Positions 1-58,400 of a stretch of 64,000 bases of DNA are shown here, piece by piece. The position numbers and the translations under genes were made by a program. The notes below the pieces were generated by a model. It made no database searches, was not told where the DNA came from, and was given only the letters and a program-made list of their open reading frames with translations. The DNA is taken from assembly GCF_004010195.1 (NCBI RefSeq), contig NC_057718.1, forward strand, positions 7,560,787-7,624,786, read 5' to 3'. Each line of letters begins with the position of its first letter. Position 1 is the first letter of the stretch. The DNA is from Chiloscyllium plagiosum (taxonomy: Eukaryota).

Positions 1-561
1 GCTCATGCGCTCCTTCTCTTGCTCTCTCACCCTCTTCTTTTGTTTTCTTTTTCTCTCATTTTCTCTCATGCCTTTCTCTATTATTATCTTTCCTTCTCTC
101 TCTCTCTCCTTTTTCTGTTATGTGCACTTTTCTCATTTTTGAAGCATGTTTGCCCCACATTCCTTTTCCATTTAATTTACCGTCCCCCACCACCCCAACC
201 TTCTGTGCTTTGTTCTCTAATGGCCCAAGGTTTGTTGTAACCAGTGAGGAGTTCCTGAACCATCTTGGGCTTATGGAATGGAGACTGGGTTCCACAGTTA
301 GGGAATGAACATTGGCAAATGAAGGAGCAGGGTTTGGGTCAAATCCCATTTACAGTGATAGTGGAAGACCCTTTCTTCAGGAGATAAATGTCCATTGAGA
401 CCTCAATGACAGCATTATTAATATAGGGTTCTATGCTACAGGACCAACACACACGTATCAGCTGCTGCCTGGTATGAGGTAACACATATGTAATACATGG
501 TTCTGGATTAGGGTGGTGCTGGAAAAGCACAGCAGGTCAGGCAGCATCCCAGGAGCAGGAA

Positions 562-596
562 AATTGACGTTTCGGGCAAAAGCCCTTCATCAGGAA
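562..596 (-). ncRNA. Minimal type I hammerhead ribozyme motif (intact core)
   Basis: Minus strand ttc-CTGATGA-a-gggc-tttt-gccc-GAAA-c-gtc-aatt: both conserved core boxes, a 4-bp stem II and a GUC triplet. Helix III is reduced to palindromic ACGT. Confidence 0.7.
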
Positions 597-1157
597 TAGA
601 GAGGTTTTTGATGTTTGAGATGGTGTTGAAATATTGTTTGTTGAGAGTATGAATTCTTCTTTGAATATAGTAAAGGAGGGGCCCTCAGCTGAGGCAGGGC
701 TGACTGTAGAGAGTTAGGAGCCGGCGCGTGGCTGCGAGTGTGGAGCGGAGGATCCTGAAGGAGAACCGTTGCTGGTGTTTTTGAATCTGTGGTCTGTATT
801 GTTTGTCCTGTTCGGTTCCAAACTCTGCTGGTTTAAAAGTGGTCCGGAGTCCGTGTGGGATCAGTTGGCTACTGAGGCAGCAAATGTGGCTGTGGTAGTG
901 AGTCTGTCTCAGGACATGGTTGAGGAGCTTCAGGGCAGAGGAGATGACCTGGGAGTTGCAGTGGGAGAGGGACTCCCTGAGATTCTTGTAGAGAGAGGAG
1001 GAGAACCTCTTCAAGGCAGGCATCCTTGCAAGAGGATTCGCAGTAGGGTTAAAATCAACGAGGCAAAAACAAGGACTGCAGATGCTGGAAACCCGAGTCT
1101 GGATCAGAGTGGTGCTGGAAAGGCACAGCAGGTCGGGCCGCATCCAAGGAGCAGGAA

Positions 1158-1192
1158 AATTGACGTTTCCGGCAGAAGCCCTTCATCAGGAA
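1158..1192 (-). ncRNA. Second hammerhead motif of the same element (stem II closing pair mismatched)
   Basis: Minus strand ttc-CTGATGA-a-gggc-ttct-gccg-GAAA-c-gtc-aatt. Confidence 0.6.
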
Positions 1193-1381
1193 GAGAAGAT
1201 GTAATACATGGTAATGATTAGAATATGTAAAACATGGCCCATTTTTCCATTTTTTTTTTTTAGCTGAGGCAGATTGGTGAGTCCATGTGAGAGAACCATT
1301 TTAAATTGAGGAAGGGCAGTGTTCTGTCACTGGAAGTGAATTATTTCCAGTTGTTGAGAATGAATTTTGAGTCAATGGTTT

Positions 1382-3603: not shown

Positions 3604-3707
3604 ATAAGTGAGGACTGCAGATGCTGGAGATCAGAGCTGAAAATGTGTTGCTGGAAAAGCTCCTTAGATGCTGCCTGACCTGCTGCGCTTTTCCAGCAAC
3701 ACATTTT
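3604..3707. mobile_element. PLE-derived fold-back mini-element
   Basis: Perfect 22-bp inverted repeat at 3639-3660 and 3687-3708. 13-bp TSD ctgccc(t/c)gtagca at 3591-3603 and 3708-3720. Confidence 0.8.
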
Positions 3708-11150: not shown

Positions 11151-12640
11151 TGTAGTAGTGGGAAGTTGTGTGTGGAGTCAGAGGAGATAGGGGAAGCACT
11201 AAATGAATATTTTTCGACAGTATTCACTCTAGAAAATGACAATATTGTCGAGGAGAATACTGAGATACAGGCTACTAGACTAGGTGGGATTGAGGTTCAC
11301 AAGGAAGAGGTATTAGAAATCCTGCAGAGTGTGAAAATAGATAAATCCCCTGGGCCGGATGGGATTTATCCTAGGATACTCTGGGAAGCTAGGGAGGAGA
11401 TTGCCGAGCCTTTGGCATTGATCTTTAAATCATCATTCTATACAGGAATAGTGCCAGAAGATTGGAGGATAGCAAATGTGGTTCCCCTGTTCAAGAAGGG
11501 GAGTAGAGACAATCCTGGTAATTATAGACCAGTGAGCCTTACTTCAGTTGTTGGTAAAGTGTTGGAAAAGGTTATAAGAGATAGGATTTATAATCATCGA
11601 GAAAAGAATAATTTGATTAGGGATAGCCAGCACGGTTTTGTGAAGGGTAGGTCGTGCCTCACAAACCTTATTGAGTTCTTTGAGAAGGTGACCAAACAGG
11701 TAGATGAGAGAAAACCGGTTGATGTGGTGTATATGGATTTCAGCAAGGCGTTCAATAAGGTTCCCCACAGTANNNNNNNNNNNNNNNNNNNNNNNNNNNN
11801 NNNNNNNNNNNNNNNNNNNNNNNNNNNNNNNNNNNNNNNNNNNNNNNNNNNNNNNNNNNNNNNNNNNNNNNNNNNNNNNNNNNNNNNNNNNNNNNNNNNN
11901 NNNNNNNNNNNNNNNNNNNNNNNNNNNNNNNNNNNNNNNNNNNNNNNNNNNNNNNNNNNNNNNNNNNNNNNNNNNNNNNNNNNNNNNNNNNNNNNNNNNN
12001 NNNNNNNNNNNNNNNNNNNNNNNNNNNNNNNNNNNNNNNNNNNNNNNNNNNNNNNNNNNNNNNNNNNNNNNNNNNNNNNNNNNNNNNNNNNNNNNNNNNN
12101 NNNNNNNNNNNNNNNNNNNNNNNNNNNNNNNNNNNNNNNNNNNNNNNNNNNNNNNNNNNNNNNNNNNNNNNNNNNNNNNNNNNNNNNNNNNNNNNNNNNN
12201 NNNNNNNNNNNNNNNNNNNNNNNNNNNNNNNNNNNNNNNNNNNNNNNNNNNNNNNNNNNNNNNNNNNNNNNNNNNNNNNNNNNNNNNNNNNNNNNNNNNN
12301 NNNNNNNNNNNNNNNNNNNNNNNNNNNNNNNNNNNNNNNNNNNNNNNNNNNNNNNNNNNNNGAGGGGGCATAGCTTTAAATTGAGGGGTGATAGATATTG
12401 GACAGATGTCAGAGGTAGTTTCTTTACTCAGAGTAGTAAGGGTATGGAATGCTTTGCCTGCAACGGTAGTAGATTCGCCAACTTTAAGTACATTTAGTTG
12501 TCATTGGACAGGAATATGGACGTACATGGAATAGTGTAGGTTAGATGGGCTTCAGATTGGTATGACAGGTCGGCGCAACATCGAGGGCCGAAGGGCCTGT
12601 ACTGCGCTGTTATGTTCTATGTTCGATGTTCTATGACTCT
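11151..12640 (+). mobile_element. CR1 LINE ORF2 (RT N-terminal part), assembly gap, then 3' end
   Basis: KSPGPDGIYPRIL..DWRIANVVPLFKKGSRDNPGNYRPVSLTSVVGK..QHGFVKGRSCLTNLIEFFE..VYMDFSKAF, with no stop before the gap. The tail is (tatgttc)n. Confidence 0.9.
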
Positions 12641-13035
12641 AAATGTTTCAAGTCTAGATGACTCTTCATCAGAGCAGATGTGAAGGGGACATATCTCCCC
12701 TTTATTTTAGCTTGTTACATGCTGTTATCATGTCCTTTCACTCACTCTCCTTCCCCCATCCTAGTGGGACTCTCTATCCTTTCCAGTCTGACGAGAGATG
12801 TATCATTGTTCTGCCATTCTCGCATTCCGATCACTTAATCTGATCTATCAACATCTTTTCTCCGTCAGCACCCTGTACCCTTTATCCGCCCACCCCACCA
12901 AACTATACTATAAAATGCTCCCCCCTCCACACTTCACTGTGATGAAGAGTTATCTAAACTTGAAACATTTGTTTGCTCTCTCTCCATGGATGCTATCTGA
13001 CCTGCTGTGATCTCCAGAATTTGTTGTTTTCACAC
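12641..13035. mobile_element. PLE-derived element, third family, with inverted HHR-like arms
   Basis: aaatgtttcaagtctagatgactcttcatca (~12641-12671) is inverse to tgatgaagagttatctaaacttgaaacattt (~12940-12970), followed by gatgctatctgacctgctg. Confidence 0.65.
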
Positions 13036-19434: not shown

Positions 19435-19985
19435 CACCCGCACTAACCAACCCCACCGTCCTGTGGCCGAATAGTTCAACTCCCCTTCCCACTCCACCAA
19501 GGACGTGCAGGTCCTAGGCCCTCCTCCATCGCCAGATTCTAACCACCCAACGCCTGGAGGAAGAACTCCTCATCTTCCGCCTCGGGACCCTCCAATCACA
19601 TGGGATCAATGTGGACTTCACCAGTTTCTTCATTTCCCCTCCCCCAATGTTATCCTAGATCCAAACTTCCAACTCGACGCCGCCCTCTTGATCTGTCCTG
19701 ACTGTCCATCTTCCTTCCCACCTTTCCGCACCACGCTCCTCTCTGACTTGCCACCATTACCCCCACCTTCATCGACCTATCACATTCCCAACTACCTTCC
19801 TCCCAAGTCCAACCCACCCCCTTCCAATTTATCTCTCAGTCCCCTTGGGCCTCCCCCACATTCCTCATGAAGAGCTTATGCTCGAAACGTCGACTCTCCT
19901 GCTCCTCGGATGCTGCCTGACCTGCTGTGCTTTTCCAGCGCCTCACTTTTTGACTCTGATCTCCAGCATCTGCAGTCCTCTCTCT
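19435..19985 (+). mobile_element. Penelope-like element 3' part: GIY-YIG C-terminus, pyrimidine-rich UTR and terminal repeat with mutated HHR
   Basis: Frameshifted PVAE*FNSPSHSTKDVQVLG..RLEEELLIFRLGTLQSHGINVDFTSF. The HHR-like motif ctCatga-a-gagc-ttat-gctc-gaaacgtc lies at ~19864-19891. Confidence 0.85.
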
Positions 19986-36720: not shown

Positions 36721-37010
36721 GTCAGTAAATCTTGAAGTATCTCATCAATGATGTGACACGAACTTAATCTAAGGAAGAGGATTTTGCCCTGTTACAGTGT
36801 GTACAGCCAACCAGCAGCCCACCCTGACAAAGTGCTTCAACTCTTGGTGGCTCTGGAACACTGTGTGTCCTCCCCTCACTGTCCCTTTCTTTGGTGAGCC
36901 TGCAAACCTGACACTTTTCCAACCTTCCCCCCACCCATCCCCATCCACGCCCACAAACTCTGGGAGCTCCTCCAGTCACACCTGCTGTGACCTTTTGGAT
37001 TCCTCCAACT

Positions 37011-37178
37011 AGGCAAAAGTGAGGACTGCAGATGCTGGAGATCAGAGTCAAGACCAGAGTGGTGCTGGAAAAGCACAGCAGGTCAGGCAGCATCCGAGGA
37101 GCAGGAAAATCGACGTTTCGGGCAGGAGCCCTTCATCAGGAATGGCCTGATGAAGGGCTTTTGCCTGAAATGTCGACC
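37011..37178. mobile_element. PLE-derived fold-back with back-to-back HHR motifs
   Basis: Perfect 11-bp TSD ttcctccaact at 37000-37010 and 37179-37189. HHR cores lie at 37111-37140 (-) and 37146-37175 (+). Confidence 0.85.
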
Positions 37179-37414
37179 TTCCTCCAACTCTAGCCTCTAC
37201 ATGTCCCAGATTCTGATACAAACATTAGTGATGGAGCTGCCTTCAGCTGCCCTATTTCCTCCCTAACCCTTCTGGGTCTCTGCCTCACCCTTCCTCCTTT
37301 TAAGGCACGCCTTCTAAACTTACCTCGGTGTTGTGTATTCTCAGTTTGTGCTGTTTGATGTCAGATTTTGTGTCAGAACACACCTTGAGACATTTAAAGT
37401 GGGATAGGAGGAGA

Positions 37415-38325
37415 GTGACAACCAAGCGGTATAATCGCTAGACTATTAATCCAAAAACTCCGCTAATGTTCCAGGGAGCTGAGTTTGAATCCCACCAGAA
37501 TAGAGGGTGAAATTTTTACCCAATAATTAAAAAGAAAAATCTGGAATTGAGAATCTCTTGGTGACCGTGAATCCAGTGTCAGAAAATAAAAACCCAATCT
37601 GGCTCACTGATGTCCTTCAGGGGAAGAAATCTACCACTTTCACCTGGTCTGGCCTACACATGACTCCAGCCCCACGGCCTTGTGGCTCGGTTGTTTCAAT
37701 CACTACGATGTCTCAACAAAGCAATGAAACCGGAAAAGACAACGGCAGAAACAGCCCTGTCGACCCCGCAAAGCCCTCCTCACTAACATCTGGGGGCGAG
37801 CGCCAACATGGGGAGAGCTGTCTCACAGACTAGCCGAGGAACAGCCTGATTTCGTTGCACTCTCGGACTCCTACCTCACCTACAGTGTCCCAGATTCCCA
37901 CCATCACCATCCCTGGATAGATCCTGTCCCACAGATAGGACTGACCCAGCAGAGATGGCGCACAGCAGTATACCAACATGAGAATCGAGAGTGTGGTGCT
38001 GGAAAAGCACAACAGGTCAGGCAGCATCTGAGGACAAGAAGAATCGACATTTTGGGCATAGACCTTTCATGATGCTATGCCCGAAATGTTGATTTTCCGG
38101 CTCCTTGGATGATGCCTGACCTGCTGTGCTTTTCCAGCACCACTTTCTCTACTCTGATCTCCGGTGTCAGCAGTCCTCACTTTCTCCAACCTGATGAAAC
38201 AGTACCAAACAGTGTCAGCAGCAAGTGTCAGGCAGAGCTAAGCAATCCCACAACCAGTGGATCAGATCTCAGATCTCCAGTCCTGCCACATCCAGCCGTG
38301 AATGGTGTTGGATGATTAACCACAA
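37415..38325 (+). mobile_element. LINE 5' region: SINE-Z-like head followed by an APE endonuclease N-terminus
   Basis: 37415-37690 matches SINE-Z. It is followed by frameshifted LLTNIWG/GELSHRLAEEQPDFVALSDSYL..TITIPG..DR..G..AVY, and later SHNQWIRSQISSPATSSREWCW. Confidence 0.7.
37981..38185. mobile_element. PLE-derived fold-back
   Basis: Long inverted arms gtggtgctggaaaagcacaacaggtcaggca and tgcctgacctgctgtgcttttccagcaccac. Imperfect TSD ccaac(a/c)tga. Confidence 0.8.
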
Positions 38326-44286: not shown

Positions 44287-44465
44287 TGAAAATGAGGACT
44301 GCAGATGCTGGAGATCACAGTCAAAAAGTGTGGCGCTGGAAGAGCATCCCTTCTCTCTCACCTCCAAAATTCTTGATGAAGGGCTTATGCCCGAAACATT
44401 GATTCTCCTGCTCCTCGGATGCTGCCTGGCCTGCTGTGCTTTTCCAGCGCCACACTTTTTGACTT
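44287..44465. mobile_element. PLE-derived fold-back with a plus-strand HHR-like motif
   Basis: Perfect 23-bp inverted repeat agtcaaaaagtgtggcgctggaa / ttccagcgccacactttttgact, and core tTGATGA-a-gggc-ttat-gccc-GAAAC. Confidence 0.8.
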
Positions 44466-51379: not shown

Positions 51380-51602
51380 GAGGTACGGCGCTGGAAAAGC
51401 CCAGCAGGCCAGACAGCATTCGAGGAGCAGGATAATTGATGTTTTGGGCATAAGCCCTTCATCACAATTGAGACATTTCCAATGAAGAGCTTATGCCTGA
51501 AATATCGATTCTCCTGCTCCTCAGATGCTCCCTGACCTTTTGTGCTTTTCCAGCACCACACTCTCGTCTCTGATCTTCAGCATCTGCAGTTCTCACCTTC
51601 TC
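51380..51602. mobile_element. PLE-derived fold-back with two decayed inverted HHR motifs
   Basis: ~75-bp inverted arms running gctggaaaagc..ttcat and atgaa..gcttttccagc. Confidence 0.8.
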
Positions 51603-51789: not shown

Positions 51790-53985
51790 AACAAAGAACG
51801 AAGAAAGTTATAGCACAGGAACAGGCCCTTCGGCCCTCCAAGCCTGTGCCAATCCAGATCCGCTATCTAAACCTGTTGCCTATTTTCTAAAGATCTGTAT
51901 CCCTCTGCTCCCTGCCATTCATGTATCTGTCTAGATACATCTTAAATGACGCTATTATGTATGTCTCCACCACTAGCAACACGTTCCAGGCCCCTACCAC
52001 CCTCTGTGTAAAGTACTTTCCACGCATATCTCCCTTAAACATTTCCCCTCTCACTTTGAACTCATGACCCCTAGTAATTGATTCCCCCCCCTCTGGGGGA
52101 TAAAGCTCCTTGCTATACACCCTGTCCGTACCTCTCATGATTTTGTAGGCCTCAATCAGGTCCCCCCTCAACCTCCTTCTTTCCAATGAAAATAATCCTA
52201 ATCTACTCAACCTCTCCCCACAGCTAGGGGCTACCATACCCGGCAGCATCCTGGTGAACCTTCTCTGCACCCTCTCCAAAGCACCCACATCGTTTTGGTA
52301 AGGTGGCGACCAGAACTATACACTGCATTCCAAATGTGGCCGAACCAAAGTCTTATATAACTGTAACATGACCTGCTAATTCTTCAACTCAATAACCCAT
52401 CCAATTAAGGAAAGCATGCCTTATATCTCTTTGCACTCTATCGACCTGCGTTGCACCTTCAGGGAACAATGGACCTGAACACACAGATCCCTCTGTACAT
52501 CAATTTTCCCCAGGGCTTTTCCATTGACCGTATTGTTCGTTCTTTAATTGGATCTTCCAAAATGTAGCACTTCACATTTGCCTGGATTGAACTTCATCTC
52601 TCCAATTTCTCCGCCCAACTCTCCGCCCAACTCTCCGCCCAACTCTCCAATCTATCTATATTCTGCATTCTCTGACAGTCCCCTTTACTATCTGCTACTC
52701 CACCAATCTTAGTGTCATCTGCAAACTTGCTAATCAGACCACCTATACCTTCCTCCAGATCATTTGTGTATATCACAAACAACAGTGGTCCCAGCATGGA
52801 CCCCTGTAAAACACCACTGGTCACAGGTCTCCATTTTGAGATACTCTCTTCCATTACTACTCACTGTCTCCTGTTGCCCAGCCAGTTCTCTATCTATCCA
52901 ACTAGTACACCCTGAACTCTATGCGACCTCACTTTCTCCATCAGCCTACCATGGGGAACCTAATCAAATGCCTTACTGAAGTCCATGTATATGACATCTA
53001 TAGCCCTTCCCTCATCAACCAATTTTGTCACTTCCTCAAAGAGTTCTATCAAGTTGGTAAGACATGACCTTCCCTGCACAAAATCATGCTGCCTATCACT
53101 GATAAGCCCATTTTCTTCCAAATGTAAATCGATCGTATCCCTCAGTATTTTCTCTAGCAGCTTCCCTACCACTGACATAAGGCTCACTGGTCTATAATTA
53201 CCTGGATTATTCTTGCTACCCTTCTTAAACAAGGGGACAACATTAGCAATTCTCCAGTCCTCCGGGACGTCACCTGTGTTAGAGGATGCTGTAAAGATAT
53301 CTGTTAAGGCCCCAGCTATTTCCCCTCTCGCTTCCCTCAGTTACCTGGGATAGGTCCCATCTGGACCTGGGGACTTGTCCAGGTTAATGCCTTTTAGAGT
53401 ACCCAACACTTCCTCCCTCCTTATGCCAACTTGACCTAGAGTAATCAAACATCTATCCTGAACCTCAACATCCATCTCTCCTCGGTGAACACGGATGCAA
53501 AGTACTCATTAAGAATGTCACTCATTTTGTTTGACTCCACGCATAACTTTCCTCCTTTGTCCTTGAGTGGGCCAACCCTTTCCCTAGTTACCCTCTTGCT
53601 CCTTATATAGAAATAAAAGGCTTTGGGATTTTCCTTAACCCTGTTTGCTAAAGATATTTCATGACCCCTTTTAGCCCTCTTAATTTCTCATTTCAGATTG
53701 GTCCTCCTTTCCCTATATTCTTCCAAAGCTTCGTCTGTCTTCAGTCGCCTAGACCTTTTGTATGCTTCCTTTTTCCTCTTAGCTAGTCTCACGATTTCAG
53801 CTGTCATCCATGTTTCCCTAATCTTGCCATTTCTATCCCTCATTTTCACAGGGACATGTCTGTCCTGCACTCTAATCAATCTCTGTTTAAAAGCCTCCCA
53901 CATATCAAATATGGATTTATCTGCAAAAAGCTGCTCCCAATCCAAGTTCCCCAGCCCCAGCTGAATTTTGCTATAGTTGGTCTTC
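51790..53985 (-). pseudogene. CR1 LINE ORF2 (reverse transcriptase), ~2.2 kb, disrupted
   Basis: NNPGNYRPVSLMSVVGK..YMDFSKAFD, SGVLQGSMLGPLLFVIYTNDL..SKFADDTKIGG and LERRRLRGDLIEAYKI, with several frameshifts. Confidence 0.92.
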
Positions 53986-56785: not shown

Positions 56786-57502
56786 TTAATGTAATTTTAC
56801 TTGGTTTGGAAATGAATTGAATGCACATAAGTAATTTAGGGGGTCAGATATGCTCTGGGACTCTTGTTGCACAGTGGTAGTGTCCCTACCTCTGATCCAG
56901 GAGGCTTTGGTTCAAATCCCACTTAATCCAGAGGTGCGTCATAACATCACTACAAATTGGTTAATTGGTACATATCTCCTGGCATTGGCATTGGTGTAGC
57001 TCACCAGAGGGTCTGGGTTAATAATCCAGAGAGTTCACATTAGCCCAATGTGAGGTTTGACCATTGAGAATCCAGATTTAAAAACAAATCTGATAAAAAT
57101 TTTTTTGAAAAATGCCTGAGGTCAGTGAAAGTGAGTGGGAAGCTGCTGCCTTGTAATGATCTGATTGGTCTGTTGCTGTTCTTTGGGGCAGGAAATCTGC
57201 CGTCTTTACTGCACGTGGGCTTAGATATGACTCAGCCATGCGAAACACTGAGCTCGTCATGATGTCAGTGCATTACAAATCAGAGCCTCTCGTTTTAACA
57301 AAATTCACAATTTTGAGTACTTGTCTTGCTCTCGCTCTCTCTTTCTCGCTCTCTCTATCTATGTTACATTCTCTCCCTCTGTGTCTCTCACACATCCCCC
57401 TCCCCCACCTCTCACCTCCTTCCTTTCTCCACCTACCTCTTTTCACCACCCGCGCTCTCTCTCTCTCCCCCAGTCTCTCCACATCTCTACCCCTCTTTCC
57501 AC

Positions 57503-57922
57503 TCCTTCCACACTCTCTCCTTCCACACTCTCTCCTTCCACACTCTCTCCTTCCACACTCTCTCCTTCCACACTCTCTCCTTCCACACTCTCTCCTTCCA
57601 CACTCTCTCCTTCCACACTCTCTCCTTCCACACTCTCTCCTTCCACACTCTCTCCTTCCACACTCTCTCCTTCCACACTCTCTCCTTCCACACTCTCTCC
57701 TTCCACACTCTCTCCTTCCACACTCTCTCCTTCCACACTCTCTCCTTCCACACTCTCTCCTTCCACACTCTCTCCTTCCACACTCTCTCCTTCCACACTC
57801 TCTCCTTCCACACTCTCTCCTTCCACACTCTCTCCTTCCACACTCTCTCCTTCCACACTCTCTCCTTCCACACTCTCTCCTTCCACACTCTCTCCTTCCA
57901 CACTCTCTCCTTCCACACTCTC
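57503..57922. repeat. 15-bp minisatellite (tccttccacactctc), ~28 perfect units
   Basis: Direct observation. It is followed by a gap and (CT)n. Confidence 0.97.
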
Positions 57923-58400
57923 TTTGTCCTTCCACTGTCTTTCTCCTTCCACTCTTCCCCCTCTCCCCTCCATTCTGTCTTCTCTCACCTCTCTCTNNNN
58001 NNNNNNNNNNNNNNNNNNNNNNNNNNNNNNNNNNNNNNNNNNNNNNNNNNNNNNNNNNNNNNNNNNNNNNNNNNNNNNNNNNNNNNNNNNNNNNNNNNNN
58101 NNNNNNNNNNNNNNNNNNNNNNNNNNNNNNNNNNNNNNNNNNNNNNNNNNNNNNNNNNNNNNNNNNNNNNNNNNNNNNNNNNNNNNNNNNNNNNNNNNNN
58201 NNNNNNNNNNNNNNNNNNNNNNNNNNNNNNNNNNNNNNNNNNNNNNNNNNNNNNNNNNNNNNNNNNNNNNNNNNNNNNNNNNNNNNNNNNNNNNNNNNNN
58301 NNNNNNNNNNNNNNNNNNNNNNNNNNNNNNNNNNNNNNNNNNNNNNNNNNNNNNNNNNNNNNNNNNNNNNNNNNNNNNNNNNNNNNNNNNNNCTTCTCAC

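Follow-up and report, generated by a model that had tools for sequence, protein, structure and literature searches.

The window analyzed, a 64-kb stretch of Chiloscyllium plagiosum DNA, contains an insert of 697 nucleotides (nt) at positions 502 to 1198, whose component features lie on the minus strand (Table 1). The two copies of the target site duplication (TSD) that flank it are identical at 14 of 14 positions. Among 3,000 random pairs of positions set 697 nt apart, the best flank match was 10 nt, apart from a single 14-nt draw that proved to be this site itself; under a looser null, in which the position pairs were unconstrained, 1 of 3,000 reached 25 nt. Chance does not explain the perfect 14-mer flanks of the insert. 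The A+T content of the TSD (71%) and of the right flank (85%) indicates an AT-rich target, and a third copy of the TSD 14-mer (86%) at positions 1225 to 1238, 26 nt downstream, places this target inside a short local duplication. There is also a 6-nt word just inside the 3′ end of the element that is repeated just to the right of the TSD.

Within the TSD copies, the insert carries direct repeats of 99 bp (502 to 600 and 1098 to 1196) that are 91% identical, with differences at 9 of 99 positions, and are spaced 596 nt apart. The leader sequence up to position 1056 is common to longer stubs at 37006 and 48275. Judged from its sequence, the insert is a pseudo-LTR (pLTR) end, a leader, an open reading frame (ORF) stump, and a second pLTR end of a Penelope-like element (PLE). 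An initial annotation of this DNA had described a 697-bp insertion with a perfect 14-bp TSD, bearing two same-orientation hammerhead motifs 596 nt apart that enclose only the N-terminal part of a Penelope-like ORF, and had considered it to derive from a PLE and to bear a minimal type I hammerhead in each terminal repeat; our analysis agrees on each of these points, and the unit holds no piece of a reverse transcriptase (RT) or GIY-YIG endonuclease.

Table 1. Features of the insert and its flanks
Feature	Positions	Strand	Description
Left TSD copy	488..501	.	14 bp; A/T at 10/14
Downstream (3′) terminal module	502..600	-	pLTR end with hammerhead plus ~64 nt of sequence behind the cut site; element 3′ end = 502
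Minimal type I hammerhead, 3′ copy	566..593	-	Core intact; 4-bp stem II (pairing probability 0.99); ACGU palindrome
Internal junction	598..604	-	ORF homology ends at 604; six pyrimidines, then the ATTC that precedes the core
Penelope-like ORF, N-terminal part, decayed	604..1023	-	Homologous to family codons 1-153
Tail / 5′ leader, between upstream repeat and ORF start	1024..1097	-	
Upstream (5′) terminal module	1098..1198	-	Element 5′ end 1198, 9 nt upstream of the core
Minimal type I hammerhead, 5′ copy	1162..1189	-	Core intact; stem II pairing probability 0.11
Right TSD copy	1199..1212	.	Identical to left copy

The homology of the ORF begins at 1023 and stops at 604, which corresponds to codon 153, and the intervening sequence has decayed: it lacks four codons near 880 and 1 nt near 714, has another deletion near 686, and contains one stop. 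The frameshifted stretch shows a net loss of 9 codons, and 27 nt are missing from 657 to 880 relative to one contig. Read from 1023, the frame matches predicted carpet shark proteins, with 81% over 92% of the query for P0001 of Chiloscyllium punctatum and further matches in Stegostoma, Hemiscyllium, and Rhincodon and, more weakly, Heterodontus. One of the homologs from whale shark (P0009) runs on into a region that is 60% identical to P0012, a protein that carries RVT_1 and several of whose relatives carry PF01541. Among the RT-bearing relatives of P0012 (n = 119), 74 match a profile built from six N-termini, and the window ORF itself aligns with the full-length protein P0024 (31% over 109 amino acids; pairwise E = 1e-11), full-length relatives being ~800 to 1100 amino acids long. 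A CX2-5CXXC motif precedes the YIG motif in 70 of the 80 relatives of at least 750 amino acids, and this motif is described as the Neptune/Nematis linker, situated between RT and endonuclease (Craig et al. 2021, PMC8557442). The ORF family is probably a Neptune-type PLE, although the linker is shared by Nematis and the present copy is truncated before it.

By homology, then, the insert is a fragment of a PLE: its ORF is related to RT plus GIY-YIG polyproteins, and direct pseudo-LTRs with hammerheads accompany it. It lacks the intact RT and GIY-YIG of an autonomous PLE, its homology ending at codon 153. A tblastn search with the RT protein P0012 returned no match in the window, hence none in the unit, and Pfam recognized no domain in the ORF fragment. 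No relatives of the ORF were found in viral contigs, and a distant metagenome match (L001, 29%) was dropped because it had neither the hammerhead pattern nor an RT match. Pieces of the ORF of this element also occur in host gene models (P0008 and P0011): in Chiloscyllium punctatum, the end of a CMRF35-like Ig-domain protein matches the N-terminal domain at 77%, a possible exonization or an annotation artifact.

Each repeat contains one minus-strand hammerhead core (569 to 593 and 1165 to 1189), and the core pattern is found five times in the window, against 0.51 expected (at least five in 0 of 100 shuffles). Both copies have the layout of minimal hammerheads (min-HHRs), with CUGAnGA and GAAA, an extra base before stem II, palindromic 15.2-16.2, and an NUH triplet. 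Both copies lack a proper helix I: C2.1 stands opposite A1.1, so that there is no pair beside the cut, and the remainder amounts to 1 to 2 scattered pairs at most (pairing probability of ≤0.001). A weak helix I of 1 to 3 bp had been noted as a caveat in the initial annotation, which was correct as to the weakness and understated it, the first pair beside the cut being absent from both copies. Position 1.1 is A in both copies, compared with G in 72 to 81% of the family depth and in 9 of 11 other copies in the window. The G10.1-C11.1 pair that closes stem II, reported to be highly conserved in min-HHRs (PMC4209133), is present in the 3′ copy and replaced by G opposite G in the 5′ copy; the mismatch previously reported in the upstream stem II is thus real, and it is graver than supposed in sitting at this closing pair. 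Both motifs are damaged where the family mostly keeps its letters, and the hammerheads are, from their sequences, probably passengers that are inactive by now. Rfam gave no match at gathering score over the whole window, and within 400 to 1300 its hammerhead models found nothing up to E = 10. Elsewhere, at 12645 to 12672 on the minus strand, lies another hammerhead core, whose stem II differs and which probably belongs to a second Penelope-like family.

Contigs from two organism A runs cross from unique flank into the element at both ends with 0 to 2 differing letters, and the organism B run also crosses both flank junctions (11 of 214 and 6 of 224 differences, plus gaps). Since these junctions are common to organisms A and B, the insertion predates the A/B split, the organism B evidence consisting of the flank junctions. 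No empty (preinsertion) site was present among the joints listed for the three DNA runs. Of the sites listed within 604 to 1023 in run X6, 19 of 23 are positions at which ≥90% of the family depth carries another letter, which puts private change over this interval at 4.5% or more. This is about half of the 9/99 divergence between the repeats, a proportion at which the two could have started out identical when the element inserted. Decay alone accounts for the nine differences; origin from two source subfamilies was also considered. At such divergence, a 14-bp TSD stays perfect with a probability of 0.26.

At site 728, letters other than that of the family reach a depth (10.9 in X6 and 3.0 in X1) equal to that of the single-copy flank (10.6 to 11.9 and 3.7 to 4.2, respectively), and we read this as no sign of descendants of this copy. 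Residual depth is higher at other sites (X6/X1, 17/11 at 719, 29/32 at 799, and 13/37 at 869) and in organism B (52 to 87, with 52 at 728, versus 10 to 14 in the flank); these values include third alleles, and depth is not copy number. The private alleles exclude descendants, not siblings. The feature is real, of a known kind, and probably dead, and the insert is most likely an old, broken, and shortened Penelope-type copy, an ordinary fossil rather than a circular-RNA element that still works.

The proposal that the insert is a retrozyme-like unit supposes that a double hammerhead released a 596-nt monomer, which circularized and was copied for more than one round to yield 596 + 101 nt. The spacing and orientation of the cores agree with this scheme, the predicted cuts (after 1162 and 566) giving 596 nt, and the divergence of the repeats is compatible with their identity at insertion. 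Cervera and De la Pena (PMC4209133) propose that circles serve as the templates from which PLEs are copied for more than one unit, and animal retrozymes are described as related to pLTRs (bioRxiv 10.64898/2026.07.22.740005). The damage to the motifs could postdate insertion, but the presence of A1.1 in both copies would mean that a single shared source circle already lacked the pair beside the cut. In a double hammerhead, each core cuts its partner's site, and the 3′ cut would therefore rely on the damaged 5′ core, which is without G10.1-C11.1. The ends of the unit coincide with none of the predicted cut sites, a circle offers no reason for copying to stop at the stub edge unless the endonuclease trims there, and the length is only 1.17 units. 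Minimal hammerheads are reported to cleave poorly in vitro, even as dimers (PMC4209133), and cleavage was recorded for one of nine Xenopus dimers (bioRxiv 10.64898/2026.07.22.740005). We consider this origin very unlikely.

The initial annotation had further suggested that the palindromic ACGU halves pair to form the double hammerhead. In the 697-nt RNA, the one RNA folded in this way, the predicted pairing probability of the intercopy ACGU helix is 0.000, and a forced double hammerhead lies 12.2 kcal/mol above the best fold; the suggested pairing is not borne out. The 3′ core is sequestered in a predicted hairpin about one-third of the time. The fold cost is weak on its own because an intact natural copy is likewise predicted to fold without the active shape, because min-HHRs are poor cutters, and because the hammerhead of a lizard PLE requires protein (PMC11167929). 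What survives of the retrozyme-like reading is that the unit is a PLE derivative with a true TSD; processing to a 596-nt monomer or circle is not supported, given the damaged motifs, the ends lying off the cut sites, the 1.17 units, and the lack of any sign of descendants.

The outer 5′ end of the insert lies 9 nt upstream of the 5′ core, and the internal junction lies 4 to 10 nt upstream of the 3′ core. Both breakpoints thus fall in the zone where stubs of the family start, positions that a compound insertion predicts and that a random deletion would rarely produce. This location of the junction, at the upstream edge of the ribozyme, speaks for an origin during transposition rather than a random deletion afterward. 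Our preferred reading, which we hold with slightly more confidence than doubt, is that of a single, old, one-off compound insertion that combined two modules, each starting at the edge; the machinery of an abundant Neptune-type PLE would have made it in trans, and it has decayed since. The endonuclease would have nicked the AT-rich site, and the RT would have started inside the element tail, at a distance of ~96 nt behind the ATTC edge, and continued as far as that edge, immediately upstream of the hammerhead; this step alone would yield the common stub of this genome. Copying would then have resumed at ORF base ~+420 of the element RNA, either because the RT jumped to a new position, on that RNA or on a different one, or because the template was already a stub-in-ORF chimera. 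The second run would have reached the same edge and been joined there to the target, leaving two same-direction hammerheads that flank an ORF stump, with neither ribozyme cleavage nor a circle being involved.

A lizard Poseidon element is reported to nick AT-rich DNA in vitro, to initiate internally without homology to the target, and to insert equally well with a dead hammerhead (PMC11167929), behavior that fits both the 3′ end at 502 and the dispensability of cleavage. The template jump in PLE copying is our inference: the searched text of PMC11167929 makes no mention of a PLE template jump or switch, and in PMC3846280 template jumps are proposed, for another feature only.

A later event could have produced the same arrangement if a full-length pLTR-ORF-pLTR insertion with its TSD had lost more than 2 kb (RT, endonuclease, and 3′ untranslated region [UTR]) by ordinary deletion. 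The copy is old, it has three other deletions, and its full-length relatives encode ~800 to 1100 amino acids. There is a precedent in Adineta, where a PLE derivative flanked by a TSD lost internal sequence through a microhomology deletion (PMC3846280), and minority alleles at 1101, 1157, and 1161 are common to both repeats, as if from one source element. Under this explanation, however, the downstream breakpoint must fall within ~10 nt of the family's usual 5′ edge, for which the chance is estimated, with the UTR length assumed, at ~0.4% over a 2.4-kb span or some 5 to 10% when the count is limited to deletions taking out all of the RT and endonuclease, and microhomology could not be demonstrated at the junction. 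We regard a later deletion as unlikely while allowing it some weight. The three other small deletions mark a copy that was deletion prone or came from a deleted source, and they count against the one-off compound insertion.

The two same-direction hammerheads are the normal ends of the element brought close together, and repeats of this kind are common here. The window contains 16 further matches to the pLTR end, none with ORF sequence, and no second copy of the ORF part or of the junction. Among the other window copies that reach stem II (n = 11), five keep ATTC before the core and each diverges beyond it; one of the five, at 19860, may read into true upstream sequence. Contigs matching the stretch number 65,594 to 106,797 in the three DNA runs, with depth peaking on repeats, and the ORF part is likewise highly repeated in these contigs. 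Loose contig ends at 597 number 759, 1,455, and 1,358 in the three runs, with an agreement of only 0.33 to 0.34. Same-direction joints recur from 597 to 513 (1, 17, and 12 contigs) and from 597 to 1072 (2, 7, and 7 contigs), the sequence between the partners of these joints not being given. An edge-to-ORF joint with another breakpoint, from 601 to 810, occurs in one contig of run X6 and represents a second ORF-stump derivative, its mean depth of 104 being possibly inflated by repeat words. Opposite-strand joints at 597 also recur, matching the head-to-head (inverted) pairs of the pLTR end that form the commoner compound arrangement in the window (3611 to 3702, 37006 to 37183, 37990 to 38144, 44289 to 44456, and 51387 to 51593).

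Rather than being a one-off, the insert could belong to a small nonautonomous family resembling R2 SIDEs, in which a master locus is copied in trans as linear RNA to give sibling insertions, cleavage being unneeded. The unit retains both cis ends and the 5′ region of the ORF, and in the lizard element the first 172 nt of the ORF are reported to carry RNA needed for insertion (PMC11167929). Nonautonomous PLE derivatives are on record, including Chlamys/MRC1 (PMC8557442) and capture between pLTRs (PMC3846280), and private alleles are compatible with siblings. But siblings are not in evidence in the window, which is without a second ORF part or junction, and among the joints listed for the three DNA runs no contig bridges the internal junction. 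The exact junction is also absent from metagenome contigs, a weak point in that the family hammerhead pattern itself has no matches in viral contigs or in prokaryote genomes. Such a family strikes us as quite unlikely.

The insert resembles several known systems in part (all comparisons being with the systems as described in the sources cited). It is like the endonuclease-positive PLEs whose pLTRs carry minimal hammerheads (Cervera and De la Pena 2014, PMC4209133) in its two direct repeats with a minimal type I core, the extra base before stem II, the palindromic 15.2-16.2, and the match of the N-terminus of its ORF to full-length RT plus GIY-YIG proteins. Unlike those PLEs, its ORF ends at codon 153 and its cores are 596 nt rather than ~3 kb apart, and helix I, of 4 to 5 bp in those elements, is shorter here with its first pair broken. 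Deleted or capture-type PLE derivatives of the rotifer Adineta vaga (Arkhipova et al. 2013, PMC3846280) are similarly incomplete, TSD flanked, and pLTR bounded, with TSDs of 8 to 10 bp and some mobilized in trans; deleted PLE derivatives flanked by TSDs are already in print for rotifers (PMC3846280). Compared with these, the present unit has direct repeats only, a 14-bp TSD, and a junction at the hammerhead edge at which no microhomology was demonstrated.

Metazoan non-LTR retrozymes (Cervera and De la Pena 2020, PMC7229834; Li, Clavereau, and Pollet 2026) share with the insert direct type I hammerheads, a TSD of more than 4 bp (14 bp here, which is not specific because PLEs make TSDs too), derivation from pLTRs, and a unit length within the range of 51 to 972 bp. 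In contrast, their hammerheads are canonical type I, with a normal helix I and loop 1-loop 2 contacts, whereas those described here are minimal and damaged; they form tandem arrays of at least two units, compared with 697/596 = 1.17 from our repeat map; and the remnant of an ORF inside this unit sets it apart from them. Retrozymes of this kind also form multicopy families and yield abundant monomeric and circular RNA, traits that are putative for this unit. We do not class the insert as a retrozyme, given the noncanonical hammerheads, the 1.17 units, the ORF remnant, and the putative status of those traits; in its manner of insertion it behaves as an endonuclease-positive PLE, of which it is a fragment. 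The LTR retrozymes of the plant type differ in having a type III hammerhead, a 4-bp TSD, and LTRs of ~350 bp, as opposed to type I, 14 bp, and 99 bp here. R2 SIDEs, short internally deleted elements (PMC6765202), are alike in being ribozyme-bearing retroelements without an ORF core that could be copied in trans, but they belong to another element class with an HDV-like ribozyme, and their propagation has been demonstrated, that of this unit being putative. Our literature search found no description of this shark unit; related shark units may be listed in the supplements of the 2026 preprint, which lay outside the search and which screened one chondrichthyan genome with a mean unit of 363 bp (bioRxiv 10.64898/2026.07.22.740005).

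A single decayed copy is of little importance alone, and the useful point is that its junction sits at the same edge upstream of the hammerhead where many stubs begin. If head-to-tail joints prove to be systematic at this edge, they would provide a route from PLE pseudo-LTRs to tandem or retrozyme-like units that needs no cleavage. Neither the circle proposal of 2014 nor the preprint of 2026 settled the question of such a route, and one locus cannot show it. A bolder possibility, which we rate as distinctly unlikely, is that the unit is a fossil of the birth of a retrozyme from a PLE, in which the RT, on reaching the hammerhead edge, rejoins the template's 3′ end and copies more than one unit into a product that can spread. 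Were this so, there would be same-direction, hammerhead-bounded units of arbitrary length spreading as linear or circular RNA, sharks would harbor an ORF-stump-bearing nonautonomous family, and the edge-to-copy joints that recur among the contigs would have arisen in this way as well.

No host gene was identified around the insert: Pfam searches of the 120 longest of 273 open frames returned only two RT fragments above the cutoff. These RVT_1 fragments, at 11151 to 11771 (plus strand) and 52963 to 53340 (minus strand), are unmatched by the Penelope RT P0012 and are probably from LINEs. The read data came from 4 of 24 listed runs, three of DNA and one of RNA. RNA run X22 (single-cell polyA, ~6% read) placed 0 reads on the stretch and is too shallow to count against expression. 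A candidate exon at 442 to 478 was rejected, having a weak acceptor score and three differences in species B, two of which change a residue in either open frame. Several frames at 57160 to 57997 are open on both strands up to an N gap, in what looks like a low-complexity repeat. On the plus strand, 51 nt to the right of the TSD, lies a candidate 13-nt micro-exon (1264 to 1276) with a poly-T acceptor and a GTGAGT donor, which has the fourth-best crude splice score; if it is real, the element would be antisense in an intron, and the host transcript would carry the nonribozyme strand.
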